NCBI RefSeq assembly: GCF_003334255.1
Contig: NZ_QOWU01000080.1
Length of the DNA stretch: 14,006 nt
From: Escherichia coli
Lineage (GTDB): Bacteria > Pseudomonadota > Gammaproteobacteria > Enterobacterales > Enterobacteriaceae
Direction: 5' to 3' (one strand)
The position numbers were made by a program, and so were the translations under genes. The notes below the pieces were generated by a model. The model saw only the letters and a program-made list of their open reading frames with translations. It did no database searches and was not told the DNA's origin. Shown one piece after another: positions 1-14,006 of this stretch; position 1 is the first letter of the stretch, and each line of letters starts with the position of its first letter.

Positions 1-216
1 GACCCGCCACCCCACGATGTATCCGGCAAACACATCAATGATGAACGCCACATAGACGAAGCCCCGCCATGTGCTGACGTAAGTAAAATCAGCCACCCAC
101 AGCTGGTCAGGTCGTTCTGCCACGAACTGACGGTTTACGTGGTCGCCTGCGGCAACGGCTTTCCGGCTGATGGTCGTACGGACCTTTTTACCCCGGAGAA
201 CACCGGCAAGTCCCAT
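1..216 (-). pseudogene. IS3-family transposase OrfB (DDE integrase) internal fragment; runs off the window start and lacks orfA and the OrfB N-terminus
   Basis: Minus-strand translation of 1-216 gives MGLAGVLRGKKVRTTISRKAVAAGDHVNRQFVAERPDQLWVADFTYVSTWRGFVYVAFIIDVFAGYIVGWRV, matching the IS3-family OrfB core; an in-frame stop lies just upstream and no orfA follows. Confidence 0.6.
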
Positions 217-289
217 AACCGCCATGTCGCAGTCGTCAGTCTGCTACTCGAATGGCGTAACGTAGCCATTTTTCTGGCCCCACACGTAG

Positions 290-820
290 TCAGGCTTTCC
301 ACGTAGAATGCAGCAATTTTTCATCAGTCAGGCTCATAATCAACCCCACTTTTTTTTCTTTATACAGCAAGAAATCAGCACGTCCAGTACATCCCTCTTC
401 CGCTTCTTGCCAGGTGGCCACCTGAGTGCGGAACTCATCATCAAACACAGACTTATCAGGCCATACCACCAGAGTTTTACCACGATAACTAATCTCAAAA
501 ATAAACTGTCCCCCTAAAGAGAAAGGGGCATCAGGGTGCCTTAAAGTAGGGTTTTGCAGGCAACGTCCTTCACGTACAGCGTGAGAAAGTATCTCTACAC
601 AATCCACAATTCCCGGACCGGGAAAACCCAGACTCCAGTAAAGCTCGCGGCGCATCACCGGTTGTTGCGGAGACAACAGAGAAAAAGCGTAGCGGCTCAC
701 ACGAATCATTAGTGCAGCAGCAATAACATTAGCGTTAGTCGTATATTTTAATAAATCCTGGCGCGTCAGAGTGATATCACCATCTTGATCCCGTACGGTT
801 ACGGTTAATTCGCTCATCAA
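290..820 (-). CDS. Hypothetical protein (176 aa), last gene of the ABC operon; paralog of the 3210-3767 product
   Basis: Long ORF directly abutting the binding-protein gene. Shares the motifs SLLSPQ, RREL, FPGxGxxDCxE and GxFxFExSYRxK with the 185-aa ORF. Confidence 0.6.
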
Positions 821-1762
821 TTACTGCTCCATAGCCTGTGGTAAAACAATATTGCTAACGTCAATTTCGTTGCGAATCATTCCATTTTCAATCATAAATT
901 GGATATCTTCTTTCATGCTGGTTATATCGTCCTGATTCAGACGCTGAGTGAAGTGAGACCGATTATACAATTTCTGTGCATCCTCAACGCTAATGCCCTG
1001 TACTTTTGCGCCTAATGCTATGGCTTCCGACTGATTTTTTTCTATCCATGTACTTGCCTCATCATGGGCAGCAATGACGACTTTAATCCAGTTCGGGTGT
1101 TTTTTAACTACCTTATCACTGGATGCCATGACCAATTTAGGTACAACCAAACCACTGGCGGTCGTCAGTACTTTAGCTCCTTCCTGTTCTGCTTTAATCA
1201 CCATGGTGGCAGCCAATAGTGCGGCATCAACCTGACTACTTTGTAAAGCCGCAAATGCCTGTGGCAAATCCATTTGAACAAACTGAACATCGTTCATGCT
1301 TAAACCATTTTTCACCAAAGCAGCCACCAACGTCTGATGTAAAACCGTGCCTTTAGGCCCTGCAATCTTTTTACCTTTTAATCCGGCAATAGAATTAACA
1401 CCATTCTTAGCCCCTACAATGGCAAAAGTATCGGTAGGACGAGAAACACCAGCGATGATCATCACAGGATTACCCTCGCTATTAGACATTAAAACTGAAG
1501 AAGTATTCATTACCCCTGCAATATCAAGATCACCGCTAGCTAGCGCCTGAGCCTGTTTGGCTCCGGAAGTAATTTCGTGCCATTCCACGTTTAATCCCAG
1601 CGATTCAGCCTGCTTTTCCAACAGGTTGTGCTCCTTCATTACAATCATTTGCAGATTAAATGGTGATTTAACATAGCTGATATCCAGCGTTTTATCATCC
1701 GCATGGGCCAGTCCAGAACTCAACAATGCAGAAAACAACGTGGTCAGAAGTATCTTTTTCAT
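821..1762 (-). CDS. ABC transporter periplasmic substrate-binding protein, NMT1/THI5 (SsuA/TauA-like) family
   Basis: 313 aa with an N-terminal signal peptide (MKKILLTTLFSALLSSGLAHA) and overall NMT1/SsuA-like character; sits in an operon with ABC ATPase and permease genes. Confidence 0.8.
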   Translation of the reverse strand: MKKILLTTLFSALLSSGLAHADDKTLDISYVKSPFNLQMIVMKEHNLLEKQAESLGLNVEWHEITSGAKQAQALASGDLDIAGVMNTSSVLMSNSEGNPVMIIAGVSRPTDTFAIVGAKNGVNSIAGLKGKKIAGPKGTVLHQTLVAALVKNGLSMNDVQFVQMDLPQAFAALQSSQVDAALLAATMVIKAEQEGAKVLTTASGLVVPKLVMASSDKVVKKHPNWIKVVIAAHDEASTWIEKNQSEAIALGAKVQGISVEDAQKLYNRSHFTQRLNQDDITSMKEDIQFMIENGMIRNEIDVSNIVLPQAMEQ

Positions 1763-1786
1763 AGTTCATCCTTATTCATAAGCAGT

Positions 1787-2455
1787 TTATAAATGGGTCA
1801 GTATTCGTTGTTTTAATTCTGTGTGGGAAATATCATGATGGCGGCGGTATACCACCGCAATTCGTCCTTGACTCATAACTAAAATCTGCTGACCAATAGT
1901 TATCGCTTCATTGAGGTCATGAGTGACAAACAAACAACTAATGTTTTGATGAGTAATCAGTCGAATTAACATTTCTTGCTGTTCTGACCGCGTGATGGCA
2001 TCCAGGGCTGCAAAAGGTTCATCCATCAGTAATACTTGTGGTTTTTGCAGAAGAGCTCTTGCGATTCCTACTCGCTGCGCCATACCACCAGAAAGTTCAT
2101 GAGGCATCAGGGAATAACTTTCTCCCAGTTGAACCTGTTGTAATACTTCAGCAATTTTGGCTTGTTTAATTTTTCTGCTACATAAAAATGGCAAAGCTAA
2201 TGCCAGATTTTCAGCTACCGTTAACCATGGTAATAAACGTGGTTCCTGAAACACCATGGCACACTGTGATGCAGAGATGTTGACTGTTCCGCTATCCGGT
2301 TTAATCAAACCTGCTACAATACGCAATAAAGTGGATTTTCCTCCACCAGAAGGGCCGAGCAAGCAAATAATTTCTCCCGGCGGCAGCGAAAGTGAGACAT
2401 CGATCAATACCTGTTTTTGCTGATAGCTTTTATTAATATGAGATAATGCTATCAT
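1787..2455 (-). CDS. ABC transporter ATP-binding protein (NitT/TauT family)
   Basis: Walker A GPSGGGKST, ABC signature LSGGMAQRVGIARAL, Walker B LLMDEPFAALD, H-loop FVTHD. Confidence 0.9.
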   Translation of the reverse strand: MIALSHINKSYQQKQVLIDVSLSLPPGEIICLLGPSGGGKSTLLRIVAGLIKPDSGTVNISASQCAMVFQEPRLLPWLTVAENLALALPFLCSRKIKQAKIAEVLQQVQLGESYSLMPHELSGGMAQRVGIARALLQKPQVLLMDEPFAALDAITRSEQQEMLIRLITHQNISCLFVTHDLNEAITIGQQILVMSQGRIAVVYRRHHDISHTELKQRILTHL

Positions 2456-3213
2456 CAGGTTGTTACCTCCGGAAAACGACGACGTAATAGCAGCACCAAT
2501 GAGCGATAAAATAGCGTATCCAATAGCCAGCCAATTAAACCAATGGTTAAAATACCCACTATTACAGCATCAGTACGCATCATCTCTTGTGAATCAATAA
2601 TCAAGTATCCCAGTCCACTGCTGGCAGCGATCAATTCTGCGCCAATTAATGCTCGCCAGCTATAACCAAAAGCCAGACGAAAACCAGTAACCACAGAAGG
2701 AGTGGCGCTTGGAATTACAATCGCCAACAGATAGCGTAAAGGTGAAAGATTCAGGCTAATGGCCAATTCCTTATGGGCTGTACTGACGCGACGCAGTCCA
2801 TCACGAGTGTTAAGAAATATGGGAAACACCGAGGCCAAAACAATAATCGAGAGTTGTGTCGTCTCCCCAATACCCAACCATAAAATCAATAATGGCGTCA
2901 TGGCCAATGGGGGGATCATACGAAAGAGTGCCAAAGGCGCGGACAATAACTGTTCCAGCCATGAGTAACGAGCAACCAAACCGGCCAACATCGTTCCAAG
3001 ACAACAACTCAGACAAAACCCTTCAAACACTCGTAATAATGAAGTGGATATATGACGAGGCAATGCGCCAATTTGCCACATATTTACGGCGGAATAAAAC
3101 ACCGTTATGGGTGATGGTAGTAAATAAGCAGAGATTAACTCCAAACTTGATAACAATTGCCAGTAAATCAATAGTAATATTGGTGTCAGCAACGGTCGCC
3201 AATAGCGCATCAC
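2455..3213 (-). CDS. ABC transporter permease (NitT/TauT family)
   Basis: 252-aa hydrophobic multi-helix protein; its stop overlaps the ATPase start and its start overlaps the stop of the upstream 185-aa ORF, suggesting translational coupling. Confidence 0.85.
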   Translation of the reverse strand: MMRYWRPLLTPILLLIYWQLLSSLELISAYLLPSPITVFYSAVNMWQIGALPRHISTSLLRVFEGFCLSCCLGTMLAGLVARYSWLEQLLSAPLALFRMIPPLAMTPLLILWLGIGETTQLSIIVLASVFPIFLNTRDGLRRVSTAHKELAISLNLSPLRYLLAIVIPSATPSVVTGFRLAFGYSWRALIGAELIAASSGLGYLIIDSQEMMRTDAVIVGILTIGLIGWLLDTLFYRSLVLLLRRRFPEVTT

Positions 3214-3767
3214 AATACCTGTATTGAATCCATTGGTGAGACGGTTAACAGCGTATTAGCTAACTGATATTTAGCCACCATCCACTGTCGTTGAACTTCT
3301 GGTGTTGCATCTGGCTGCTTACTTGCACGCCCTATTTTCAAAAATTCAGTAGTTGGCTGCCCGCCTACCGGAGCTAATGATACTTTTTTACTACGATAAC
3401 TAAATTCAAAATAGAAACGTCCAGTAAGACCTTGCTGTGCTTCGGTTTGGTCAAAGTCGACATCTAATATAAAACGATTTTCCGACACCATGCGGGTTAC
3501 CAACTCAAAACAATCACGGGCCCCCCTCCCCGGAAAGGCTGTAAATAATGCTAATTCCCGACGTTGCAGGGGCTCATCCTGCGGTGATAGCAATGAAATA
3601 GCCCTTTGTAGTAACCGAAATCCCAGTACTACGCCACCAACAGCATCATACCCATGATAATTGAAGGCATCCTGAACCGAGAAAGAAAAAAGCTGATGAT
3701 TATCTGCAACGTTTAGGGATGGCATAACCCATTGGGATACAGGGATAAGACCTGGATTAGTACTCAT
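3210..3767 (-). CDS. Hypothetical protein (185 aa), first gene of the ABC operon; paralog of the 290-820 product
   Basis: ORF overlaps the permease start by 4 bp; shares conserved blocks with the 176-aa ORF (see finding). Confidence 0.6.
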   Translation of the reverse strand: MSTNPGLIPVSQWVMPSLNVADNHQLFSFSVQDAFNYHGYDAVGGVVLGFRLLQRAISLLSPQDEPLQRRELALFTAFPGRGARDCFELVTRMVSENRFILDVDFDQTEAQQGLTGRFYFEFSYRSKKVSLAPVGGQPTTEFLKIGRASKQPDATPEVQRQWMVAKYQLANTLLTVSPMDSIQVL

Positions 3768-3857
3768 GTCAACCGCCTTTCTCTTTTTATAGTAAGAGTT
3801 ATTCCCTCATGTCGATTCTAGATACAAATACAAACAACATCAATTCTCATTCCCTCT

Positions 3858-4143
3858 TCAGGTTATTTGCCTCGCTGTTTTTCTCACTGTCTCCGTTATG
3901 GTGTACACCACCTCTTCCAGTAACCGACACTTCGCCGAACTCAGGAAACCGTAGTACCTCACCATACGGAACCCCTGAGGTAGCCAGGAGGCTGCAAATC
4001 GGGGTGTGGCAGAATATGAGCTTTCAGAGTAACCATCCAGAATGAGTTCCCATGTCACACAACCTGGAGCACCAGAAAGTCCACACCAGAATGGTGAAAG
4101 AGGTTCTGAAAGCCGTCGCCAGAGCCAATAATCACCCTTATCA
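3858..4143 (-). pseudogene. Possible IS91-family (Y2 rolling-circle) transposase C-terminal remnant
   Basis: Minus-strand translation contains LPQGFRMVRYYGFLSSAKCRLL, resembling the conserved C-terminal block of IS91-family transposases as recalled (LPKGF.RIRHYGFLAN); ends abruptly at the IR at 4144. Confidence 0.3.
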
Positions 4144-4181
4144 GGGGTTCCGTGGGAATTTCTGCGATAACACCCGCTAAG
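4144..4181 (+). repeat. Tn3-family 38-bp terminal inverted repeat (left)
   Basis: GGGGTTCCGTGGGAATTTCTGCGATAACACCCGCTAAG. Confidence 0.65.
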
Positions 4182-4318
4182 CGATTCCTCCCTGACGGAA
4201 ATCACTTGTTTTCCGTCAGGTCCTGCAGTTGAAGAAAATTGAATCCATAAATCTGTGATTTTTTGCGTGACAAACCCTGTCGGAATGAGAAACTGTACGG
4301 AAACTTCAATTTTAAGGT

Positions 4319-4504
4319 TTGTCGTACATTCGCAGCCAGGGGATCATTATACCGGAAGAGCTCTTGTCCAGTGTATCACCACTACCATGGGGTCATATCT
4401 CACTCACTGGAGATTACCTGTGGAACGAAATTGACCATCCCCTTGAACGATACAGGCCACTTCGTACTAATCGCTTCAATCCAAAGAACTTCACTTTTCC
4501 TTAG
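4319..4504 (+). pseudogene. tnpA: Tn3-family transposase TnpA C-terminal remnant
   Basis: Translation ends PLPWGHISLTGDYLWNEIDHPLERYRPLRTNRF, resembling the extreme C-terminus of Tn3-family TnpA (LGWEHINLTGDYLW...RPLRP as recalled); stop codon lies inside the right IR, as in Tn3-family transposons. Confidence 0.5.
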
Positions 4505-4537
4505 CGTGTGTTATCGCAGAAATGCCCACGGAACGCC
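4500..4537 (-). repeat. Tn3-family 38-bp terminal inverted repeat (right)
   Basis: Reverse complement reads GGCGTTCCGTGGGCATTTCTGCGATAACACACGCTAAG. Confidence 0.65.
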
Positions 4538-4879
4538 GTTATGGCCGTGAATGTGCCGACGACCTGGATTAATTCTGGTATGAGTGAGTTTGACAGCCGG
4601 TTGTTTGCAGCCATTAACGATATGCTGCTGGATATGCTGGCCGCTGTTGCCAGAAGGGACTATGAACAACGGCGGGAACGCCAGAAACAGGGGATAGAGA
4701 AAGCAAGGAAAGACGGCAAATATAAAGGGCGTAAACCTAATCAAGCCAGACATGATGCAATTATCAGGTTGATAGAAAGTGGCAGCTCCTGGACACAGGT
4801 ACAGAAGGTGCTAGGGTGCAGCCGCGGCACAATCAGTAGCGCAATAAAACGTAAATCCCGGCAATCCTCCGGTGAGTAG
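4508..4879 (+). pseudogene. Serine recombinase (resolvase/invertase) C-terminal fragment; catalytic N-terminal domain absent
   Basis: Contains LLDMLAAVARRDYEQRRERQKQGIEKARKDGKYKGRKP followed by an HTH-like tail (SWTQVQKVLGCSRGTISSAIKR); convincing similarity begins around 4570-4580; no S-T-x-x-Q catalytic region upstream. Confidence 0.5.
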
Positions 4880-4994
4880 GGTAGGGTGAGCTCAATAAAC
4901 TGGCTGACGTTATTTATTAGGGAGGTGCTGAGGTGGATATTTTTAAAAAGCAAATTGAATGTTGTAACTAATGAATATCAAAATAAAAGGCCGC

Positions 4995-5174
4995 TTACGC
5001 GACCTCAGCCTTTTGCGGTTTTGGCTTGGTGATATACCACGATAGACAACCGACAATAAAACTCATGAACATTCCAGTAAAACGATCATCGATGCCTGGA
5101 AACAGGCAACCGACAAACATCGCAACAGGGAAAGGAAGAAGTAAACAGCGCCCCAAAATGCTCATAAAATCCAT
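4995..5174 (-). CDS. Small hydrophobic membrane protein (59 aa), unknown function
   Basis: ATG at 5174 is preceded by AGGAGG with a 4-nt spacer; product MDFMSILGRCLLLPFPVAMFVGCLFPGIDDRFTGMFMSFIVGCLSWYITKPKPQKAEVA. The six-frame track extends it to a GTG at 5210 inside a hairpin, which I consider unlikely. Confidence 0.4.
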   Translation of the reverse strand: MDFMSILGRCLLLPFPVAMFVGCLFPGIDDRFTGMFMSFIVGCLSWYITKPKPQKAEVA

Positions 5175-5192
5175 AAATCCTCCTTTGTTAAA

Positions 5193-5219
5193 GGGCAGGA
5201 AGCGGTGCACTTCCTGCCC
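5193..5219 (-). terminator. GC-rich hairpin, probable terminator of the toxin transcript (possibly bidirectional)
   Basis: 10-bp perfect stem GGGCAGGAAG / CTTCCTGCCC with a 7-nt loop, about 20 nt downstream of the toxin stop; followed by TTTAA on the minus strand. Confidence 0.5.
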
Positions 5220-5240
5220 TTAGTTACGTTTCCGCAGTCA

Positions 5241-5336
5241 TCAATCGATGAACTGACGGATCAGTTCCAGAACTGCAATCAGCGCGTTTGCAACGGCGAC
5301 CACAGCCCTGAGAACGATGATTAACAGGTTAATCAT
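5241..5336 (-). CDS. Candidate type I toxin: 31-aa hydrophobic peptide, DinQ/TisB-like
   Basis: Not in the ORF track (below size cutoff). Translates to MINLLIIVLRAVVAVANALIAVLELIRQFID; GGAG sits 6 nt upstream of the ATG; resembles DinQ as recalled (shared IIVL and ALIA.LELIR blocks). Confidence 0.5.
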   Translation of the reverse strand: MINLLIIVLRAVVAVANALIAVLELIRQFID

Positions 5337-5413
5337 CCGTTTCTCCAGGTTGATACTGGAGGAAGTTGCCGTTGCTTGCTCATACATCGCCTGTCACAAC
5401 GGCTCTCTCACAT

Positions 5414-5453
5414 TGTTGGATGTAGAGTACCTTCCCCCTGCCAGAGCACTGAA
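5414..5453 (+). repeat. Copy 1 of a ~40-bp repeat, within the putative toxin leader
   Basis: TGTTGGATGTAGAGTACCTTCCCCCTGCCAGAGC... is roughly 85% identical to the copy at 5658-5697. Confidence 0.6.
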
Positions 5454-5623
5454 CACAGCACCACCTGTTTGTTCAGCCAGGGCTTTAATTCGTTCATACC
5501 CAGATAGCGCAGGGTTTAGAAGCAAGGGAGGCACACTGTACAGCGCCAACACAAAGATTATACAGATGCACGCATAAAATTCATTTAAAGAAATGGCCAT
5601 TGACAGACAATCTGAAGTCAAAC

Positions 5624-5650
5624 TAGACAACTGGTGTCTAGTGCCATAAT
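5624..5650 (+). promoter_or_regulatory. Putative sigma70 promoter for the small RNA
   Basis: TAGACA (5624-5629), 15-nt spacer, extended -10 TGcCATAAT (5642-5650); alternative -10 TAATAT at 5647-5652 with a 17-nt spacer. Confidence 0.3.
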
Positions 5651-5656
5651 ATTGTG

Positions 5657-5748
5657 GATGTTGGATGTAGAGTATCTTCCTCCAGTCAGAGCCACCAACT
5701 CAGGACTGGAAAACACGAAAAAGCCCGATTACCAGTCGGGTTTTTTTG
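5657..5748 (+). ncRNA. Candidate ~90-nt small RNA (AgrB-like antitoxin), divergent from the toxin gene
   Basis: Promoter-like elements upstream and a strong intrinsic terminator at the 3' end; body contains repeat copy 2, which is imperfectly complementary to the minus-strand toxin transcript at copy 1. Confidence 0.4.
5722..5748 (+). terminator. Rho-independent terminator
   Basis: Stem GCCCGA / TCGGGT with loop TTACCAG, followed by seven T; A-tract upstream, so possibly bidirectional. Confidence 0.6.
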
Positions 5749-6149
5749 TGCCTGTCGTTCGACTGTTCTTCCGTTTTTTCCCTTCATTTGGGGGATTTTC
5801 TTTCAGTTTTTTTGTTAAGTCCAATGCTGCCGGTCGCGTTGGCCAACAGATCAATGCCGTTATCGGCGTTTCCATTAATCCTTTTTTTCAGTAAGTTGCA
5901 GCACAAAAGATGATTAAAAAGCTATCAGTTTTTTTGATGGATACAGTAGCGGCGGTACGCTGCGTGAAATCTGAGGTTTTCGGGTAGGATTGGTCGCGAG
6001 AATTTACGAGAGAGCGACGGGCGGTTTCTGCACTGAGACAAGATACAACCGTTCTTTTTTTTCCCCTTCACGCCGTAGCTGAGCGATCTCGTCTCTGTTA
6101 CGCTGAAGTTCAATGATAGTCGTAATATTTAACTCTTTACCTCTTTCGT

Positions 6150-6166
6150 GGTATACCAGGTATACC
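6150..6166 (+). promoter_or_regulatory. Tandem 8-bp palindromes GGTATACC-a-GGTATACC, candidate operator upstream of the EamA gene
   Basis: Two identical self-complementary octamers separated by 1 nt, about 17 nt upstream of the start codon and just 5' of the AGGAGG ribosome-binding site. Confidence 0.3.
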
Positions 6167-6182
6167 GAAAAAAGGAGGCGTG

Positions 6183-7070
6183 ATGAACAACCAAAACTAT
6201 TTTTTAGTCCGTTGTATGTACGTAATTCTGATGGGACTAGGTTTTCCTATCATGAGATATATGAGTTTAAACTTTGACACATTAAATAACAATGCTATCA
6301 GATTTATCTCTGGAGGTGTTATTTTTTGCATTGTCTGCTTATTAAAGTACAATAACCACTTAAAAAATATAAATATTAAAACAATACTACTGCTTTTTGT
6401 TCTTTCTATTTTCATGACATGTAACATGTTCTTTTTTATTAATGGAATAAAGCATACATCAGCCTTATCAGGGAGTATTTTTAGTATATTAGCAATGCCA
6501 TTAGGTATTCTTGTCGCCAGTTTATTTTTTATTGACGAACGAGAAAGAGCACTTAGCTATAAATTTATAACAGGTTCATTAATTGCAATTATTGGATCAT
6601 TTATTTTTGTTTTTAATGGTTACTCTTTGGATTCCGGCTCATTTAGTTATACAGGCTTTATATTTTTAACCATCGCAATTTGCATTCAATCGATACAAAA
6701 TGTCATTGTTAAAATTGTAGCACAATACCTTCCCGCAATTGTAATTAGTGCGTCAACAGCAACAATTTCAGGGTTAATGTTTTTATTATTAGCAATAAAA
6801 ACAGGCGTTATCACAGAATTATCAGTAACATCCAAAGAATTATTAATATATTTGGTTCTTGCTGGCATATATGGAATGATGACAGGTATGCTTATGGCAT
6901 TTTACATAGTAAAAACACAAGGGGTAACTATTTTTAATATAACTCAATTACTAATCCCCGTATCAACAGGAATTTTTGGATACATCACTTTAGGTGAAAA
7001 AGTTGATCTTATTCAGGCAACAGGAGCAGTGATCATCATTGCTGGCTGTATTTTTGCAACAAAGCGATAA
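6183..7070 (+). CDS. DMT-superfamily (EamA-like) integral membrane transporter
   Basis: ~295 aa, about 10 predicted hydrophobic helices in two repeated halves; AGGAGG 4 nt upstream of ATG 6183 (the track's 6180 start is a GTG one codon upstream); very AT-rich. Confidence 0.8.
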   Translation: MNNQNYFLVRCMYVILMGLGFPIMRYMSLNFDTLNNNAIRFISGGVIFCIVCLLKYNNHLKNINIKTILLLFVLSIFMTCNMFFFINGIKHTSALSGSIFSILAMPLGILVASLFFIDERERALSYKFITGSLIAIIGSFIFVFNGYSLDSGSFSYTGFIFLTIAICIQSIQNVIVKIVAQYLPAIVISASTATISGLMFLLLAIKTGVITELSVTSKELLIYLVLAGIYGMMTGMLMAFYIVKTQGVTIFNITQLLIPVSTGIFGYITLGEKVDLIQATGAVIIIAGCIFATKR

Positions 7071-7080
7071 TGAGGTATTT

Positions 7081-8076
7081 ATGTATAATGTTGGTATTAT
7101 TGGGCTAGGGCAAATAGCTTATTCAATCGATAATGACCCGGCAAGAAAGATTACCTGGTCTCATATAAATGCATACAAAAAGTCTAAAGATACGCAAGTT
7201 ATATCAATCTGTGACATAGATGAAACACAAGTCAAAAAGATATCACAGGAATGTGATATCTATTCAGGGTATACCGATTACAGAGAAATGCTCAAAAATG
7301 AAGACCTCGATATAGTTAGTATTTGCACACCGATAAATACTCATGTTCAAATAATAAAAGACTGCATAAAGCATAATGTCAAAGCTATATTTTGTGAGAA
7401 GACAATATCATACAGTCTGGATGATTCGAGTGAAATCGTTGAATTATGCAAGAAAAATAATGTAGTACTGGCTGTTAATCATGTCCGTCGATGGGATGAT
7501 TTTAATCAAAAAATAAAAAATATAATTACACAAGATAATTATGGCGATATTTATACTATTGACTGCTATGGTGGAACGGCACTCCATACCAGTACAAGTC
7601 ACTTAATTGACTTAATGTGCTTCTTTTCTGATTCAGAGCCAGAATGGAGCATTGGATGTAAACAACAGGATTATGTTCGTAATGTTCACGGTGTACATGA
7701 TTACGGGGGCACAGGGTTTATAAAATTTAAAAATGGAATTATTGGGATAGTAAAATCAAATTCATCTTCTGAATTTAATATTTGCTTTGAAATTGATATT
7801 GCATGTAAAAATGGAAGAGTTATTATAACTGACGCTGGAGATACATGTGAGTTTTATAAATTTACACACAGTAATAGTTCGAGTGGTAGTCATTACAAAA
7901 CGTTATCTCTCGTACATAAAATATATAAAAATCAAACTGAAAGAATGATCAATGCTGTAAATAATATCGTTATGGCATTAAAAAAAGATCAGCAAGTCAA
8001 ATCAACAGGTCAAACATCATTAGCTTCCATCAAAATAATCAGTGGTATTTTATCTGAGGAAAAAACATTATTCTAA
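7081..8076 (+). CDS. Gfo/Idh/MocA-family NAD(P)-dependent oxidoreductase
   Basis: N-terminal Rossmann motif MYNVGIIGLGQIA; GAGG 5 nt upstream of ATG 7081. The track's 7039 start overlaps the previous gene and lacks a ribosome-binding site. Confidence 0.8.
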   Translation: MYNVGIIGLGQIAYSIDNDPARKITWSHINAYKKSKDTQVISICDIDETQVKKISQECDIYSGYTDYREMLKNEDLDIVSICTPINTHVQIIKDCIKHNVKAIFCEKTISYSLDDSSEIVELCKKNNVVLAVNHVRRWDDFNQKIKNIITQDNYGDIYTIDCYGGTALHTSTSHLIDLMCFFSDSEPEWSIGCKQQDYVRNVHGVHDYGGTGFIKFKNGIIGIVKSNSSSEFNICFEIDIACKNGRVIITDAGDTCEFYKFTHSNSSSGSHYKTLSLVHKIYKNQTERMINAVNNIVMALKKDQQVKSTGQTSLASIKIISGILSEEKTLF

Positions 8077-8081
8077 TTTGA

Positions 8082-8113
8082 TATCCTCCATGTACAGAGA
8101 AACGTGGAGGATA
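8082..8113 (+). terminator. Hairpin after the oxidoreductase gene (terminator-like, no clear U-tract)
   Basis: 11-bp stem TATCCTCCATG / CGTGGAGGATA with one G-U pair and a 10-nt loop, 6 nt after the stop codon. Confidence 0.35.
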
Positions 8114-8126
8114 CCAGTAAATCAGG

Positions 8127-8160
8127 GGAAGCTTGTCCCCCCCAGAAAGAACAAGCTTCC
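8127..8160. terminator. Second hairpin between convergent genes
   Basis: Perfect 10-bp inverted repeat GGAAGCTTGT / ACAAGCTTCC with a 14-nt C-rich loop; could serve the minus-strand gene ending at 8170. Confidence 0.35.
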
Positions 8161-8169
8161 GAATACAAT

Positions 8170-8436
8170 TTATCGTCTCTTCGCCCACTCTTTTTCATCA
8201 TCGGTGAGTTGTTCTTTATGCAAATAATCACCAGGAACAGGGGGAGGGGTAACCAGTTTAGGACGTCCATTATCATCACGAACTGTCACCAGACCAACTA
8301 CTTCTCCATTTTCTTTAAGTGCCCATGCAGCCAGTTGATATAGTGTTGACTTTCCTGTTACACCAGAGACATTATCGTGACGAAAATACCAGTCTGTCGC
8401 AGGGATAATTTGTTTATAAGGTGATGATTCACTCAT
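8170..8436 (-). CDS. Hypothetical protein (88 aa)
   Basis: ATG at 8436 preceded by GAGG with an 8-nt spacer; the track's longer 133-aa version has no ribosome-binding site at its start. Product MSESSPYKQIIPATDWYFRHDNVSGVTGKSTLYQLAAWALKENGEVVGLVTVRDDNGRPKLV... Confidence 0.5.
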   Translation of the reverse strand: MSESSPYKQIIPATDWYFRHDNVSGVTGKSTLYQLAAWALKENGEVVGLVTVRDDNGRPKLVTPPPVPGDYLHKEQLTDDEKEWAKRR

Positions 8437-8688
8437 AGCTTTTTCCTCAAAAAAATCTCCGGTATAAAACCAGAGGCTTGTTATAGGGGTCAGTTTGGAG
8501 ATCGGAAAATTTTGTTCGTTAAGCACATTATTTAACCAATAGATATGCGTAACGGATTGATTTTGCGTCAACGGCTATCGCTTTTAAGTTATCGCCATTG
8601 CGGTATTGCATTTAGGTTATCCGATAGAGGTCAAATCCTCTGAAAATGCCGTATAGCACGGGAGTACACCCTACCGCAATAGCGCAAC

Positions 8689-8704
8689 CGTACAATATTG
8701 TACG
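8689..8704. promoter_or_regulatory. Perfect 16-bp palindrome CGTACAATATTGTACG
   Basis: Self-complementary; half-site resembles the TGTACA operator motifs near the phd promoter; lies in the divergent intergenic region. Confidence 0.3.
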
Positions 8705-8865
8705 TTTCCCAAACGCAGCCCATCAGGCGCGGAACTCATCGAGGCGCGGGAATAAAATCCCATTCAGATGCCGGATAGATTCAAGCAAGCCCACTTATCG
8801 TCAAAATCGGTGTTGCAAAAACGGGAGTGACCATAGATTCGTTTCCCAAACCGCCCCCTTTTATA

Positions 8866-8899
8866 TTGACCAGAAGTGTTGTACAGTTTAATTGTACAA
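8866..8899 (+). promoter_or_regulatory. phd-doc promoter with two palindromic TGTACA operator sites
   Basis: TTGACC at 8866-8871; two TTGTACA-containing palindromes centred about 13 bp apart (8879-8886 and 8892-8899), immediately upstream of the ribosome-binding site. Confidence 0.45.
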
Positions 8900-8916
8900 C
8901 TCAAAGAGGAAGCACT

Positions 8917-9141
8917 ATGTTTACATGTAACTATAGCCATGCTCGCGATAACCTGGCCTCGTTGCTCGAGCTGGCGGTTGATGAAAATCAGCCAGTTGAG
9001 ATTCAGCGCCGTAAAGGTGGCGCAGCTGTACTGGTTGATAAAGACGCTTTTGAACGATACCGTAAAGCGGCTCTTGATGCTGAGTTTGCTGAGATCATGC
9101 AAAGTCATGGGACGGCCTATACGGAGCTTTCTAAGCGATGA
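8917..9141 (+). CDS. phd: Phd-family antitoxin
   Basis: 74 aa, MFTCNYSHARDNLASLLELAVDENQPVEIQRRKGGAAVLVDKDAFERYRKAALDAEFAEIM..., closely resembling P1 Phd as recalled; GAGGA 6 nt upstream; stop overlaps the doc start (ATGA). Confidence 0.85.
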   Translation: MFTCNYSHARDNLASLLELAVDENQPVEIQRRKGGAAVLVDKDAFERYRKAALDAEFAEIMQSHGTAYTELSKR

Positions 9142-9524
9142 AATTCGTTAGTTCACAGGAAGTGATTGAGTTTCATGACCGCTTGATTTCGCGTGATGGT
9201 GGCGTGGCGGGTATGCCAGAACCCGGTCGCGCTGACGCGATCATTCATCGTGTTTTGAACATGTATCATTATGAAGGTGTGACAGATATTATGGATCTGG
9301 CTGCCGTGTATTTAGTTGCTATTGCTCGTGGTCACATTTTCAACGATGCAAATAAGCGAACAGCCTTGTTTGTTGCACAGGTTTTTTTAAAACGGAATGG
9401 TGTACATATTATTAGTTCACGTATTTCGTTTGATGAAATGCAAATTATCGCTTTGAATGCTGCAACAGGAGAATATAACTGGAAGATGGTTTCTGACCAT
9501 CTTAAAGCCATTATTCTAAATTAG
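9138..9524 (+). CDS. doc: Doc toxin (Fic/Doc family)
   Basis: 128 aa with the Doc-type motif HIFNDANKRTA and GMPEPGRADAII, resembling P1 Doc; translationally coupled to phd. Confidence 0.9.
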   Translation: MKFVSSQEVIEFHDRLISRDGGVAGMPEPGRADAIIHRVLNMYHYEGVTDIMDLAAVYLVAIARGHIFNDANKRTALFVAQVFLKRNGVHIISSRISFDEMQIIALNAATGEYNWKMVSDHLKAIILN

Positions 9525-9631
9525 ATATAGATATCCAATCAGCAGCATTTTACAATCTCCTGAGCAATGTAAAAATCATATATCTTTTTACTATATAATT
9601 TCTGGCGTATGTGCTCAATTCAGACCTGACA

Positions 9632-9693
9632 CCCTTCCGCTTCCTCGCCCACTCGCCCACTCGCTCACTACCGTTCGGTCGCTGCGGCGAGCG
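9632..9693. other. ColE1/pMB1-like plasmid backbone segment (region flanking ori; possibly a primosome assembly site)
   Basis: CCCTTCCGCTTCCTCGC...CACTCGCTCACT...CGTTCGGTCGCTGCGGCGAGCG resembles the pBR322/pUC segment TCTTCCGCTTCCTCGCTCACTGACTCGCTGCGCTCGGTCGTTCGGCTGCGGCGAGCG, recalled from memory. Confidence 0.4.
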
Positions 9694-9776
9694 TTTGTAA
9701 GTTTTTCAATACAGACGACGTTCTCCCTGGCTGATTAATATTGTGTAATAATACATATCGTTTTCAGGAATAATGG

Positions 9777-10034
9777 GGGGTTGAGGCCCAATCGTACGAG
9801 ATCGTACGCTAAGTTCATTTTTTGAGCAGAAGAGGGGGGGGGTAAAGAAAACGAGGGTTTTGTTTACTCTTCCCGTCAATGCCAGTAGCCATGCGGTTTC
9901 AGGGACTTTCAGTGTTAATAAACTCGGTAATCAAATCAACGTAAACCTGCCTAACAACGCCACGACTTTATTGACTTAAAATCATATAGTTAGCTTCTTA
10001 GCGTACGTTTCCGCTCCATTGGGCTTCAAACCCC
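9777..10034. mobile_element. 258-bp element bounded by gamma-delta (Tn1000)-like IRs; IS101-like miniature element, or a composite of IR remnants
   Basis: Left IR 9777-9813 GGGGTTGAGGCCCAATCGTACGAGATCGTACGCTAAG and right IR 9997-10034 (reverse complement GGGGTTTGAAGCCCAATGGAGCGGAAACGTACGCTAAG) are inverted with outer GGGG and inner TAAG; no ORF inside. Confidence 0.5.
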
Positions 10035-10120
10035 TATACCAGGCAAGACGCATTCGCCTTGCCCGTAAATATCTGAACGGTAAAAAGGTTATGGAAGAAA
10101 CCGGGGAAAATACGCCCCCG

Positions 10121-10399
10121 TCAGCGTAAGGATTTCTTTTGCAGCTCCAGAGACTCCAGTTTTTTACGCAAATCCTCTCTTTTTTTGGCATCTCTGGTGC
10201 CTGCCAGTTTAGCTCTCAACTCATCGATCTGAAGCTGTATCTCCAGCCTTTTACTGAACATTTTCTGTCTGGCATTAACATCAGCAACAATGCCGTTTTT
10301 TGTCTTCTCGGCCTTTTGTTGAAAAACATTGCTGTCCGCATGACTGGCGACCGAAGCAGAAAGCACACTAAAAAGCAGGACTGGCACACATTTTTTCAC
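10121..10399 (-). CDS. Small secreted protein (92 aa) with a signal peptide and a charged coiled-coil-like mature region
   Basis: GTG start with AGGAA 8 nt upstream; MKKCVPVLLFSVLSASVASHA signal-like N-terminus followed by a K/E/R/L-rich sequence. Confidence 0.5.
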   Translation of the reverse strand: MKKCVPVLLFSVLSASVASHADSNVFQQKAEKTKNGIVADVNARQKMFSKRLEIQLQIDELRAKLAGTRDAKKREDLRKKLESLELQKKSLR

Positions 10400-10501
10400 G
10401 GGATTATTCCTGACTCATTGACCATCAAATCACATTGGGGTAAACCGACGTATGATAAGAGATACTCTTCGGAGATATAACCCCCTGAGTATCAGGATGA
10501 A

Positions 10502-10539
10502 AAACGCAAGGAGATGTTTATGGGGTCCGCTTGGAAAAC
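10502..10539 (+). repeat. Tn3-family 38-bp terminal IR (Tn21/Tn501-like), left end of the tnpR-tnpA transposon
   Basis: GGGGTCCGCTTGGAAAACGGAAAATATCCCACGCTAAG; compare the Tn21 IR as recalled (GAAAACGGAAAATA...CACGCTAAG). Lies just beyond the tnpR stop. Confidence 0.6.
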
Positions 10540-10567
10540 GGAAAATATCCCACGCTAAGACTATTTT

Positions 10568-11158
10568 CTATACAGTAACAGTTTGCTGTTTCGCTCTAAC
10601 TCTCAGAATTGTTTGCCGTGTGGTTCGGAATTCCCTGGCAATAGCACTTATACTTGCCCCAGACTTAATGCGTTCGAGTACCTTCTGTTTTTGTTCTTCA
10701 TTTAATACCGGTGGGCGACCAAAACGTTTTCCTGCATCCCGTGCTCTTGCTATCCCTGAATAAGTTCGTTCAAGTAAAAGATCTCGTTCAAATTCAGCGA
10801 CCGCTGAAATCACTTGCATTGTCATTTTTCCTGCCGGACTGGTCAGATCAACACCACCTAATGCCAGGCAATGCACCCTGATGCCAGATTCGGTCAGTTG
10901 CTCCACTGTTTTCCTGATATCCATTGCATTACGACCGAGGCGATCCAGTTTTGTGACTATCAATACATCGCCACTTTCCAGACGATCAAGCAACCGGTTA
11001 AAACTAGGACGTTCACTGGCTGCTACTGAGCCACTAATTTGTTCTTCGATTATTCGTTGGGGTCTGACGTTAAAACCCGCGCTTTCGATTTCCCGACGTT
11101 GATTTTCGGTCGTCTGTTCCAGAGTGGAAACCCGACAATAGGCAAAAATTCGAGACAT
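10568..11158 (-). CDS. tnpR: Serine recombinase, Tn3-family resolvase TnpR
   Basis: 196 aa; N-terminal catalytic motif [22 protein letters not shown]-helix region, C-terminal HTH; divergent from tnpA. Confidence 0.9.
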
Positions 11159-11318
11159 AGTGAGATCTTCTGTACGAAATAGGTGTACATATTATAATGC
11201 ATGTCCGAAAGTAATTTCGCTGACTTTCGGATATATCTGTTTAACAATGTCCGAAACCGGTCGTTTTCGGTCACAACAAATCCATAACATATGAAAACTT
11301 TACACGAGGGAAGCATTC
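11159..11318. promoter_or_regulatory. res site region with divergent tnpR/tnpA promoters
   Basis: Repeated imperfect inverted half-sites (TGTCCGAAAGTA...GACTTTCGGATA; TGTCCGAAACC...TTTTCGGTCACA) and a palindromic ATTATAAT giving a -10-like hexamer on both strands. Confidence 0.5.
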
Positions 11319-13037
11319 ATGCCACGGCGACAAATACTGAGTAGTGAAGAGCAAGCTCGCCTGCTGGTTATACCAGATGATGAAATTATTCTGACCAGAA
11401 TGTGTTTTCTTTGTGATAAAGATATTGCTCTCATTAATAAGCACCGGCGTCCAGCTAATCGCCTGGGCTTTGCGGTATTACTCTGTTACCTGCGTGGGCC
11501 TGGATTTGTTCCGGACAAAAATAATGTTCCCCACTGTGGCGTTGTATCCAGAATTGCTTCAAGACTGAAGCTTCAGCCCGATTTATGGCATGAATATGCA
11601 GCCAGAGAGCAAACCCGCTGGGAGCATCTGGCTGAACTTTATCGCTACCTGAAATTATCTCCGTTCAGCCGAACTCTGCAAAAAGACTGCATTCGGCATC
11701 TGCATTCCTATGCCATGCGAACAGATAAAGGATTTACTCTGGCGGAGGAAATGCTCAGTTGGCTACATAACAATAATGTTATTTTCCCGTCGGTTGATGT
11801 GATCGAACGGACGCTTGCCGAAGCCGTCACACTTGCTGACAGATCTGTTTTTTCGGCACTTACGACACAACTGGGAAAGCAGCATAGATCTGCACTCGAC
11901 AGCCTGCTCATATCAGAAGGGGAACAACCTTCCCGACTTGCGTGGCTACTTCAGCCTCCCGGTAAAATTAACGGTAAAAACGTGCTGCAACATATCGATC
12001 GACTTAATTCTATCACCGCGCTGGAATTACCTGATGGTATTGAGCTTTCCGTTCACCAGAACAAATTACTCAAACTGGCGCGTGAGGGCCGAAAAATGAG
12101 CAGCAGAGATCTGGCAAAATTCACCGATATCAGACGTTACGCTACGCTGGTTTGTGTCATTCAGGAAGCCAGAGCAACATTGACTGATGAAGTTATCGAG
12201 CTACACGAACGCATTATGGGCGGTCTGTTCAGCCAGGCAAAACGCACACAAGCCGAGAGGCTTCAGTTAACAGGCAAACTTATCCAGAGCAAGTTAAGAC
12301 AATATGTTACTGTCGGTCAGGCGCTACTGCATGCCAGAAAGTCAGGTGAAGATCCCTGGGCCGCGATAGAAGATGTTATTCCCAGGCAGGAGTTCGTCAA
12401 CAGCCTGGAAGAAACACAGTTGCTGTCCCGTAAAGGTAATTTCGATCCTCTTCACCTGATCACCGAAAAATACAGCACACTTCGAAAATACGCTCCACGA
12501 ATGTTGTCAGCATTGCAGTTTGTAGCGACACCTGCGGCGCAGCCGCTCAGCGATGCACTGGATACTATAAGGGAAATATACCGTAAGCAGCTTCGTAACG
12601 TTCCGCCTACAGCGCCAACAGCATTTATTCCTGAAAGCTGGCGAAAACTGGTATTAACGCCTTCAGGCATCAATCGAAAATACTATGAGTTTTGTGTACT
12701 GAATGAACTCAAGGGGGCGTTACGTTCCGGAGATATTTGGGTAAAAGGGTCGCGTCGTTACAGAAATTTTGATGATTATCTTATCCCGGTCACTGAATTT
12801 GATAAATCCCGACAAAATGACCAGTTACAACTGGCTGTGCAGACTGATTGCCATGCATATCTTCAGGCCCGTATGACGCTTCTTGCATCTCGTCTGGAAG
12901 AAGTTAACGCAATGGCTCTTGCCGGTGAGCTGCCGGATGTTGATATTTCAGATAAAGGAGTGAAAATCACTCCGCTGGAGAACGGGGTTCTGAGGTGTAC
13001 TGGCAATAGCGGACACTACCATTTGTTCTTTTTTTAA
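11319..13037 (+). pseudogene. tnpA: Tn3-family transposase TnpA, N-terminal ~557 aa only; interrupted by IS insertion at about 12990
   Basis: N-terminus MPRRQILSSEEQARLL...RPANRLGFAVLLCYLR closely resembles Tn3-family TnpA; full-length TnpA is about 1000 aa. The last ~15 codons (LRCTGNSGHYHLFFF) are read from the IS end. Confidence 0.85.
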
Positions 13038-14006
13038 GCAGCCATCTGATGATATTTTTCCCTGAAGGCTGCCGGGGAGATATTCCCCAGACGAGAGTGA
13101 CGACGCTGACGATTGTAGAAAATCTCAATGTATTCCCGTATTACTGAGATGGCTTCATCCCGGTTATTAAAACGATAGTGGCTCAGGCTCTCATTTTTCA
13201 GCGTTCCCCAGAAGCTTTCCATCGGAGCGTTGTCGTAACAGTTACCTTTACGCGACATTGATGTTTTCAGACCAAACTGCTCCTGTATGACCCGGTAATC
13301 GTATGCGCAGTACTGTGAACCTCGATCAGAGTGGTGGATTAGCCCGGCAGGTGGGCGCTGGCTCCTGAGCGCCATAAACAGGGCTTTACCTGTCAGCTCT
13401 TTTGTCATGCGCTCTCCCATGGCGTAGCCGACAATTTCGCACGTATAAACATCTTTGATGCCAGCGAGGTACAACCATCCCTCCTGTGTGGCAACATACG
13501 TCAGGTCCGCCACCCAGACCTGATTTGGTGCTGTAGGAGCGAACGTCTGGTTCAGCAGATTTGGCGCAACTGGCAGATTGTGGTTCGAGTTCGTAGTCGC
13601 TCTGAACTTGCGTTTCTGCTTACAGCGTAGCCTTAGCTCCTTACGAAGACGTGCCAGTTGGTCACGACCAACGATGATGCCATTCTCTGCCAGCTCCGTC
13701 TGGAGCCGCCGGGTTCCATATGTTTCGCGAGTGCGGATATGTGCCACCTTAATCTCCAGTTTTAGCCGCTCATCACTTTGTTTTCTGTCTGAGGGTTCAT
13801 GCTGTACCCAGTTGTAATAACCGCTCCTGGATACACCAAATACCTGACACATCGCTTCAATGGGAAATTGTTGTCGCCATTGTTCGATTAACGCGTATTT
13901 TTCAGCGACTCCTGTGCAAAATACGCTGTTGTAGATTCAATCTGTCAATGCAACACCCCTTTCAATTATCTCTTTCGGTGTTTTGAACTTCAGTGTCTTT
14001 CTCGGT
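12991..14006 (-). mobile_element. IS3-family insertion sequence (3' part with intact orfB; orfA apparently disrupted or absent), runs off the window
   Basis: IS terminus at 12991 (TGAGGTGTACTGGCAATAGCGGACAC) resembles IS3 ends as recalled; orfB intact; only ~17 codons of an orfA-like C-terminus (TAYFAQESLKNTR) precede stops in every frame. Confidence 0.7.
13034..13852 (-). CDS. IS3-family transposase OrfB (DDE integrase)
   Basis: 272 aa with VSRSGYYNW near the N-terminus, WVADLTYV, HHSDRGSQY and CYDNAPMESFWGTLK (DDE catalytic core). Confidence 0.85.
   Translation of the reverse strand: MCQVFGVSRSGYYNWVQHEPSDRKQSDERLKLEIKVAHIRTRETYGTRRLQTELAENGIIVGRDQLARLRKELRLRCKQKRKFRATTNSNHNLPVAPNLLNQTFAPTAPNQVWVADLTYVATQEGWLYLAGIKDVYTCEIVGYAMGERMTKELTGKALFMALRSQRPPAGLIHHSDRGSQYCAYDYRVIQEQFGLKTSMSRKGNCYDNAPMESFWGTLKNESLSHYRFNNRDEAISVIREYIEIFYNRQRRHSRLGNISPAAFREKYHQMAA

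Follow-up and report, generated by a model that had tools for sequence, protein, structure and literature searches.

Tn3-derived miniature elements and a disabled Tn3-family transposon in the accessory DNA of an Escherichia coli IncFII colicin plasmid

The 14,006-nucleotide (nt) stretch of Escherichia coli contig NZ_QOWU01000080.1 analysed here (the window, meaning the whole stretch) holds four separate Tn3-family elements, i.e., three gene-less miniatures, which we call E1, M1 and M2, and one disabled transposon, together with one stub of a terminal inverted repeat (IR). The remains of at least three distinct transposase lineages are represented, because the 557-amino-acid (aa) part of the transposase TnpA kept by the transposon at 10522 is only 25-27% identical to the TnpA of gamma-delta (expect value E = 2e-34) and to that of the parent of E1 (E = 1e-58). 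An earlier note on this DNA had read the cluster as a landing pad in a plasmid maintenance region, where Tn3-family elements drawn to resolution sites had repeatedly been captured and degraded. Repeated capture and degradation are borne out, as several degraded elements have collected in the region. As to the cause of the clustering, we hold with good confidence that the elements inserted in tolerant accessory DNA that was then reshaped by deletion and rearrangement, and that they were not captured by targeting near a resolution site.

Terminal inverted repeats

IRs were sought with a 38-column position weight matrix built from outside reference IRs only, namely both ends each of IS101, TIME244, IMU and MITESen1 (PMC13367494 Table S2; Gomi and Yano 2026) and the ends of gamma-delta, taken from plasmid F. 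Both strands were scanned with a cut-off of at least 12 bits, and 200 Markov shuffles served as the background. Seven sites in the window reached the cut-off, against 0.08 expected by chance. They are the two ends each of E1, M1 and M2, with the first of each pair on the plus strand and the second on the minus strand, and the plus-strand left end of the transposon at 10522 (Table 1). The M2 ends scored 33.0 and 35.6 bits, and a separate repeat finder paired 4144 with 4500 at 92% and 9773 with 9997 at 78% complementarity. Coordinates in other plasmids are given under the labels L001 (pDETEC45), L002 (the G6/7 plasmid), L003 (a 9-kb ColE1-type plasmid), L007 (NZ_CP085057), L008 (a 1.9-kb ColE1-type plasmid), L020 (a colicin D plasmid) and L023 (pJNE132847_2).

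An identity matrix sorts the IRs into four or five types, which makes the "at least three sequence types" of the earlier note a conservative count. The IRs at 4144 and 4537 are identical to each other at 35/38 positions. Those at 9776 and 10034 agree at 30/38 with each other and at 30-32/38 with IS101, and the IR at 10034 reaches 33/38 with gamma-delta. The IR at 10522 is identical (38/38) to its partner outside the window (L002), the IR at 8486 agrees at 36/38 with the right IR of MITESen1, and the IR at 8721 has an unusual GGGC tip. Pairwise alignment, which the note had proposed as a check, gives no sign that the IRs are spurious; they are genuine Tn3-type transposon ends. Far from being scattered relics, they make up the paired ends of complete miniature elements and the end of one disabled autonomous transposon, with one IR stub besides. 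Among the five IRs listed in the earlier note, four were correctly placed (one with a shift from 9777 to 9776) and the fifth was 20 bp off, at 10502 instead of 10522; the ends at 8486 and 8721 and a 19-nt half IR had been missed.

Table 1. Positions of the mobile-element features and neighbouring segments in the window.
Feature	Position	Strand	Evidence or remark
IS91-family transposase fragment, left flank of E1	3851-4001	-	blastn 87-91% to IS91 copies
E1, 394 bp	4144-4537	+	IRs 4144-4181 and 4500-4537; res-like region 4182-4329; last ~57 tnpA codons 4330-4499
Res-like region in E1	4182-4329	+	perfect dyad TGACGGAAA...TTTCCGTCA (half-site scan); upstream of tnpR in the intact parent
3' part of IncX1 plasmid resolvase gene	4538-4879	+	residues 102-214 of 214; 112/113 aa identical to pSE34 resolvase
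IncX1-backbone block (truncated resolvase, small open reading frame, dqlB/AgrB repeats)	4538-5975		97.8% to pSE34 over 716 nt
M1, 236 bp, Tn3-derived miniature, MITESen1 variant	8486-8721	+	IRs 8486-8523 and 8684-8721
Right-end fragment of IS5075/IS4321-like (IS1111-family) insertion sequence	8722-8839	+	~97-98% over 119-125 nt (window 8721-8844)
Outer 19 nt (GGGGGCGGTTTGGGAAACG) of another Tn3-type IR	8840-8858	-	half left outside the IS5075-type insertion point
phd-doc toxin-antitoxin pair	8917-9524	+	RefSeq annotation of identical DNA; between M1 and M2, inside neither
Short ColE1-type-like relic	9628-9693	+	77.6% identity over 67 nt to L003 5397-5458, E = 1.5e-7
M2, 259 bp, Tn3-derived miniature	9776-10034	+	IRs 9776-9813 and 9997-10034, gamma-delta/IS101/Tn5403 type
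Remnant (TATACCAGG) of the original M2 target site, with one TATAC copy	10035-10043	+	identical to right flank in L023, then divergence
Left 38-bp IR of the 3,815-bp cryptic Tn3-family transposon	10522-10559	+	36.8 bits; right IR outside the window
tnpR, intact 196-aa serine resolvase	10568-11158	-	34% to gamma-delta resolvase, E = 2e-31; RefSeq "recombinase family protein"
Res-like 160-bp divergent tnpR-tnpA intergenic region	11159-11318		five TGTCCGAAA-type half sites in dyads
tnpA, 5' 557 codons, cut by IS600	11319-12990	+	similarity to intact copies ends at 12990
IS600, interrupted by IS30 from 13932	12991-14006	-	RefSeq annotation; IS600 end begins at 12991

M2, a miniature with copies in several genera

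M2 contains no open reading frame (ORF) of at least 50 aa. We take it to be a genuine Tn3-derived miniature because its copies stand in several contexts and three of them are bounded by perfect 5-bp duplications. At a coverage of at least 80%, copies are found in 161 E. coli records and in 210 plasmid records and span several contexts and genera. A setting beside the microcin B17 operon is common to about 100 of the E. coli records, and the others differ. More diverged copies are found in Enterobacter (87%), Pantoea (83%) and Pectobacterium (74%). The perfect duplications, which surround the copies in Pantoea (TAAAC), L022 (GTAAA) and L023 (TATAC), indicate that M2 has transposed at least three times elsewhere. 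A length below 500 bp, a Tn3-type IR at each end, the lack of a transposase gene and duplication-flanked copies in unrelated contexts are among the features by which TIMEs are recognised, and M2 shows them. M2 matched none of the Enterobacteriaceae miniatures listed in PMC13367494 that were compared, so it is probably unnamed.

An assignment of M2 to IS101 was considered and rejected, as only the IRs align. The 183-nt interior of M2 gave a local score of 16 against IS101, no better than the shuffle mean of 17.4. The interiors of M1 and M2 likewise had no significant similarity to the regions of gamma-delta, L019, the large transposon, E1, IS101, TIME244 or IMU, in a test for which IS101 against the gamma-delta res served as the positive control (z = 7.2). 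Since the M2 interior is unlike the gamma-delta res, a functional res is not indicated for M2.

In the window, M2 is flanked by TAATG and TATAC and thus has no duplication. Only 9 nt of the duplication-flanked right flank seen in L023 are kept (Table 1), which argues that the present neighbours of M2 are secondary. The match between the window and plasmid pECOED (strain ED1a) also stops at about 10043, and a copy of IS26 follows there. Three plasmid lineages part company exactly 9 nt beyond the right end of M2, where the window goes on into a 92-aa ORF, pECOED into IS26 and pJNE132847_2 into its own flank; this suggests a rearrangement junction involving IS26 at 10035-10044.

Three smaller observations concern M2 and its right-hand neighbourhood. 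The window copy has a run of nine G at 9844-9852 where other E. coli copies (L005, L022, L023 and L024) read GGTGAG; the run, to which the length of 259 instead of 256 bp is due, may have come from slippage or from a sequencing error in a homopolymer. The 92-aa ORF (10121-10399, minus strand), which lies between M2 and the transposon, has a signal-peptide-like N-terminus and a charged, coiled-coil-like remainder and matches no family. The 487-bp interval that separates M2 from the transposon appears to be private to the plasmid lineage of the window.

E1, a deletion derivative of a larger transposon

The two halves of E1 match the two ends of one widespread Tn3-family transposon, nt 1-186 its left end (98-100%) and nt 182-394 its right end (99%). 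The intact parent (L003 921-4708) is 3,788 bp long, carries tnpR and then tnpA in the same direction, and has a perfect target duplication, ATGTT. The halves of E1 are joined at TACAT (window 4325-4329), a motif present at both corresponding sites of the parent (L003 1102-1106 and 4496-4500). This arrangement identifies E1 as a derivative of the 3,788-bp transposon by an internal deletion of 3,394 bp between 5-bp repeats. What was kept comprises the left IR, the whole leader between IR and tnpR, the last ~57 codons of tnpA and the right IR. With both IRs and the res-like leader retained, E1 looks like a miniature element at its birth; the leader would be predicted to contain a res site.

The reading of E1 as a repeated miniature element was not upheld, as its two halves correspond to the opposite ends of a full transposon and only one lineage has them joined. 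The full 394 bp with both junctions occur in six plasmid records only. Neither several contexts nor direct repeats were found for E1, which belongs to one plasmid lineage and has the flanks TATCA and GTTAT, without a target duplication. Its right tip reads GGCG, as opposed to GGGG in the intact copy. The terminal GGGG is nearly invariant in the Tn3 family, so E1 is presumably impaired.

To the left of E1 lies the IS91-family fragment, in which ORF residues 69-109 match the NCBIfam model transpos_IS91 (E = 1.7e-4). To the right, starting at the base directly after the IR tip, lies the C-terminal resolvase fragment reported in the earlier note, which had placed its beginning at 4570 instead of 4538. 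The note had asked whether this fragment matches a plasmid resolvase, and it does, as the resolvase of the IncX1 plasmid pSE34 (Table 1). In pSE34 and other IncX1 plasmids, the intact resolvase gene adjoins parA/parG. The fragment lacks the catalytic N-terminal domain, and the IncX1 res that should lie upstream is absent; across E1, the IS91 fragment stands in the place of the res and of the 5' part of the gene. The end of E1 is situated 303 nt inside the resolvase coding sequence, at codon 102, and not in a res site.

Relics of 125 nt with 84.5% identity to the left end of E1 (IR and leader) occur in E. coli chromosomes, among them those of CFT073, Nissle 1917 and ATCC 25922. They are found once per chromosome in many strains, sometimes beside a pseudogene of DUF4158 (the TnpA N-terminal domain).

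M1 and the adjoining IS5075-type stub

M1 is a close relative of MITESen1, a 256-bp element of ISfinder whose sequence is given in PMC13367494 Table S2. A global alignment of the two has 201 identical columns among 259, with about 90% identity over the shared core and a 23-nt gap. This falls short of the identity and coverage of at least 95% by which PMC13367494 assigns sequences to MITESen1, so M1 is a variant or relative and not MITESen1 itself. The other end of M1, the one with the GGGC tip, is 23 nt shorter than that of MITESen1 and has a divergent IR (27/38); this variant end recurs in L001, L002 and L007. The M1 variant itself is present in another E. coli plasmid (L007), and a canonical MITESen1 copy in L008. 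The plasmid has a second copy of M1 in inverted orientation, with 91.5% identity, situated beyond the window about 8.4 kb further right (L002 22839-23074).

Directly after M1 comes the stub, the last ~118 nt of an IS5075/IS4321-like insertion sequence, which match the right end of IS5075-type elements present in thousands of plasmids. The reference for it was the segment downstream of the annotated IS5075 transposase gene in a Tn21-type IR (L009). In the window, the junction ...GGGAGTGACCATAGATT / IR outer half has the same arrangement as the annotated IS5075 in L009. Both the sequence identity and the position inside a Tn3-family IR, ~19-20 nt from the tip, are thus those of IS5075/IS4321, of which only a fragment is left here. 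The phd-doc pair mentioned in the earlier note is indeed present. It was considered as a passenger of a transposon beginning at 8486, and this was rejected because M1 ends at 8721 and leaves phd-doc outside.

The disabled transposon at 10522

The fourth element is known in intact form from a colicin D plasmid (L020 3001-6815), where it measures 3,815 bp, with perfect 38-bp IRs, the target duplication TATCA and a tnpA of 2,985 nt. The element has the hallmarks of an autonomous Tn3-family transposon, i.e., 38-bp IRs of the form GGGG...TAAG, a Tn3-type TnpA, TnpR with a predicted res, and a 5-bp duplication (in L020). The copy in the G6/7 plasmid has identical IRs (38/38) and the flanks TTTAT and AGTAA, without a duplication. 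In the window, comparison with the intact copies indicates that the transposon has been disabled by the insertion of IS600 into tnpA, with tnpR and the predicted res kept. The earlier note was right about the intact tnpR and about a res-like region, of which there are two if that of E1 is counted. The one between tnpR and tnpA occupies the same position as the gamma-delta res and would be expected to function as one. A look-up of the exact-sequence clusters for element names returned only the generic "Tn3 family transposase" and "recombinase family protein".

The terminal sequence of IS30 (TGTAGATTCAAT...) is found inside IS600 at 13932-14006, so the right end of the window is a nest of IS30 in IS600 in tnpA.

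How the cluster arose

Tn3-family elements transpose by a replicative "paste-and-copy" mechanism, in which donor and target become joined in a cointegrate through TnpA bound to the 38-bp IRs. Resolution of the cointegrate by TnpR takes place at res, and 5-bp target duplications are left behind. Elements with Tn3-type ends but no genes of their own can still move when a matching TnpA is provided in trans. No 5-bp direct repeat surrounds any of the four elements in the window, whereas for three of them such a repeat is present at intact or other copies elsewhere (TATCA for the element at 10522, ATGTT for the parent of E1, and TAAAC, GTAAA and TATAC for M2).

We therefore favour, as stated above, a history in which the elements inserted where accessory DNA tolerated them and deletions and rearrangements came afterwards. 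Each element would have lost its target duplication after insertion, the likely causes being TnpA-mediated adjacent deletion or inversion, rearrangement driven by IS26, IS91 or IS1111-type elements, and homologous recombination. Such post-insertion rearrangement would explain why the IncX1, ColE1-like and other blocks now start exactly at IR tips. The clustering would then reflect DNA in which insertions are harmless, and not the targeting of a resolution site; it may also reflect a lack of mutual target immunity between unlike IR types. Swapped or reverse-complement duplications, as would be left by an inversion between the M1 copies or by exchange between elements, were looked for by eye in the printed flanks and none was seen. 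The arrangement in pECOED, which includes an IS26-associated inversion, is not cleanly derivable from a single event.

Several points weigh against this reading. For E1, M1 and the large transposon, the search for an ancestral state at their present sites, whether empty or duplication-flanked, found none. M1-type ends occur several times on the plasmid, a poor fit to a simple argument from target immunity. Lastly, the density of Tn3-type ends looks high, with at least 13 in ~25 kb of the plasmid lineage, and there may be a weak regional preference for Tn3-type insertion.

One alternative is that the cluster arrived in one piece, as a composite in which two inverted copies of M1 bound a mobile unit carrying phd-doc, M2 and the cryptic transposon. 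The M1 copies are indeed inverted, with their canonical GGGG...TAAG ends facing outward (L002 14485 and 23074, giving an 8.6-kb unit), and composite structures bounded by MITESen1, some of them without direct repeats, are described in PMC13367494. However, the outer flanks (TTATA and TACAG) show no duplication, the M1 copies are only 91.5% identical, and the structure is seen only in the plasmid lineage of the window. In pECOED, the second M1 copy is in direct orientation after the inversion. The composite would also leave E1 unexplained, and overall we regard it as unlikely.

The targeted landing pad of the earlier note, in which Tn3-family elements were drawn repeatedly to plasmid or transposon resolution functions and decayed in place, draws on the presence of four elements with eight IR ends within 6.4 kb, on a plasmid resolvase gene hit directly by E1, and on the two res-like regions. 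Yet no target duplication is present at any element here, E1 abuts the resolvase gene well within its coding sequence, no IncX1 res is present, and the M2 flanks are demonstrably secondary. IS91, IS600, IS30, IS26, IS1 and IS629 crowd the same accessory DNA, so elements outside the Tn3 family share in the crowding. Accumulation at resolution sites is known from transposons of the Tn5053/Tn402 family, with TniABQ proteins and 25-bp IRs; to our knowledge, hunting for res sites is a property of that family and not of Tn3-family TnpA. Neither the ORF list nor the RefSeq annotation of the window contains tni genes (tniABQ(R)), the ends here are of the 38-bp Tn3 type, and none of the insertions is in a res site. 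For these reasons, we find the landing-pad idea weak and very unlikely to be right.

A further variant would have Tn3-family transposases prefer sites beside unlike Tn3-type ends or res, so that one element attracts others and the duplications are erased later; we give it hardly any credence. That chance matches or generic palindromes, and not transposon ends, account for the IR-like sequences is refuted for practical purposes: a loose GGGG-N-TAAG regular expression, rejected as an IR finder for being too permissive, does give ~1.5 matches in shuffles, but the matrix from independent references finds its seven sites far above chance, the ends pair at 78-92% complementarity, IRs form the exact boundaries of each element wherever it stands in an unrelated context, and 5-bp duplications flank copies elsewhere.

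Plasmid context

The window is 99.9% identical over positions 1-13931 to the E. coli plasmids pDETEC45 (NZ_CP116070), NZ_CP145705 and NZ_CP075654 and matches pECOED over 1-10043. The G6/7 and G8 plasmids are 100% identical to it in two pieces. These matches identify the replicon as an IncFII colicin plasmid of E. coli, and a chromosomal contig with no plasmid genes nearby, which would have spoken against the earlier note, is not what we have here. The G6/7 and G8 plasmids lack ~500 bp (window ~11050-11560; junction at L002 17049-17050) comprising the 5' end of tnpR, the predicted res and the 5' end of tnpA. It follows that the source plasmid of the window is a distinct relative, with the predicted res intact.

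In pDETEC45, the corresponding segment lies between the parM/stability genes and the IncFII repA, with colicin/microcin genes and copies of IS91, IS629, IS600, IS26, IS1 and IS66 as neighbours. The window is thus accessory mosaic DNA between the par and rep regions and not the core maintenance region of the plasmid. The ColE1-like segment named in the earlier note exists but is only ~67 nt long (9628-9693), with 78% identity to a ColE1-type plasmid.

Comparison with known elements and significance

M1, M2 and E1 resemble the TIME/MITE class (PMC4133298; PMC13367494) in their size of 236-394 bp, their 38-bp IRs, the absence of a transposase gene and their location on a plasmid. Copies of M2 have the 5-bp direct repeats typical of the class, and none of the three has them in the window. 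E1 is unlike the class in being confined to a single lineage, in its GGCG tip and in showing no sign of movement. MITESen1 and M1 share one closely similar IR and ~90% of the core, and the canonical MITESen1 copy in L008 aligns with M1 end to end, whereas M1 is 20 bp shorter and differs in its other IR.

IS101 is a 209-bp element of pSC101 that is mobilised and resolved by gamma-delta. M2 shares its IR type (30-32/38) and, like it, is a gene-less miniature, with an unlike interior. The 3,815-bp transposon is organised like the small cryptic transposons of the Tn3 family whose only genes are tnpR and tnpA (Tn5403, for example, or Tn1000/gamma-delta minus its extra ORF). Its tnpR and tnpA are divergent and separated by a predicted res, its 38-bp IRs are perfect, and it makes 5-bp duplications, although TnpA is only 25-27% and TnpR 34% identical to those of gamma-delta. 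The parent of E1, with res, tnpR and tnpA in the same direction, follows the order of the Tn21 group instead. RefSeq names both the 3,815-bp element and the parent of E1 as "Tn3 family" only. For the stub, the comparison is with IS4321/IS5075 in the IRs of the Tn21 family, where, as here, the insertion sequence ends against the outermost ~19-20 nt of a Tn3-type IR. In the window only the last ~118 nt are present, and the target IR is not of the Tn21 type and resembles the M1/MITESen1-type ends.

The kinds of element and the mechanisms involved are already known, and no new mechanism is revealed. The additions are modest, namely a probable new family (M2), a variant of MITESen1 (M1) and, in E1, a miniature whose origin is documented. 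We think it fairly probable that M2 represents an undescribed, recently mobile family and that E1 is a miniature caught at the moment of its origin. M2, as a probable unnamed family, has copies in more than 200 plasmid records, and target duplications attest three of its insertions. E1 is a clear example of how a miniature may arise by deletion between 5-bp repeats, with both ends and a res-like leader kept. Annotation pipelines miss gene-less Tn3-derived miniatures, and the breakpoints between plasmid modules fall here exactly at unannotated Tn3-type ends. Pairs of Tn3-derived miniatures can move the genes between them, including resistance genes (PMC13367494).

Further Tn3-type ends and other features

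Further Tn3-type IRs are distributed across the accessory region of the same plasmids. Solitary M1-type IRs with the GGGC tip are found at L001 14490-14527, ~0.5 kb to the left of the window start, and at L002 24298-24335. A 292-bp hybrid miniature at L001 39184-39475, also outside the window, matches IS101 over its first 191 nt, including the res-like interior, and has a Tn21/IMU-like IR at its other end; it has no flanking target duplication. At L007 3817-5409, an IS110-family transposase gene lies between two Tn3-type IRs, of which one is an M1-type GGGC end and the other a GGGGGCGG end; the segment is either a miniature element into which an IS1111-family element has inserted or a chimera of an unusual kind.

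The IncX1 block to the right of E1 includes, within an IncFII plasmid, the gene of a DinQ-like type I toxin, dqlB (5241-5336, minus strand; RefSeq annotation). It also includes a match to the Rfam AgrB antisense RNA (5661-5748, plus strand; 68.8 bits) and a duplicated 48-nt repeat (5414-5461 and 5659-5706).

A scan of 8400-11400 gave 6 promoter-like sites against 6.2 expected from shuffles, i.e., no excess. In the same interval there were 7 terminator-like sites against 3.1 expected (standard deviation 2.0), a modest excess in which none of the sites was informative.

A DMT-family transporter gene and a Gfo/Idh/MocA oxidoreductase gene at 6180-8076 form a low-GC foreign island, with 30-35% GC compared with about 45% elsewhere, and the oxidoreductase gene is split in pDETEC45. 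Near the left end of the window, the minus-strand ORFs 290-820 and 3210-3767 (176 and 185 aa) flank an SsuA-like ABC transporter operon. Neither matches NCBIfam; they have short DNA repeats in common (D3 and D5) and may be paralogues.

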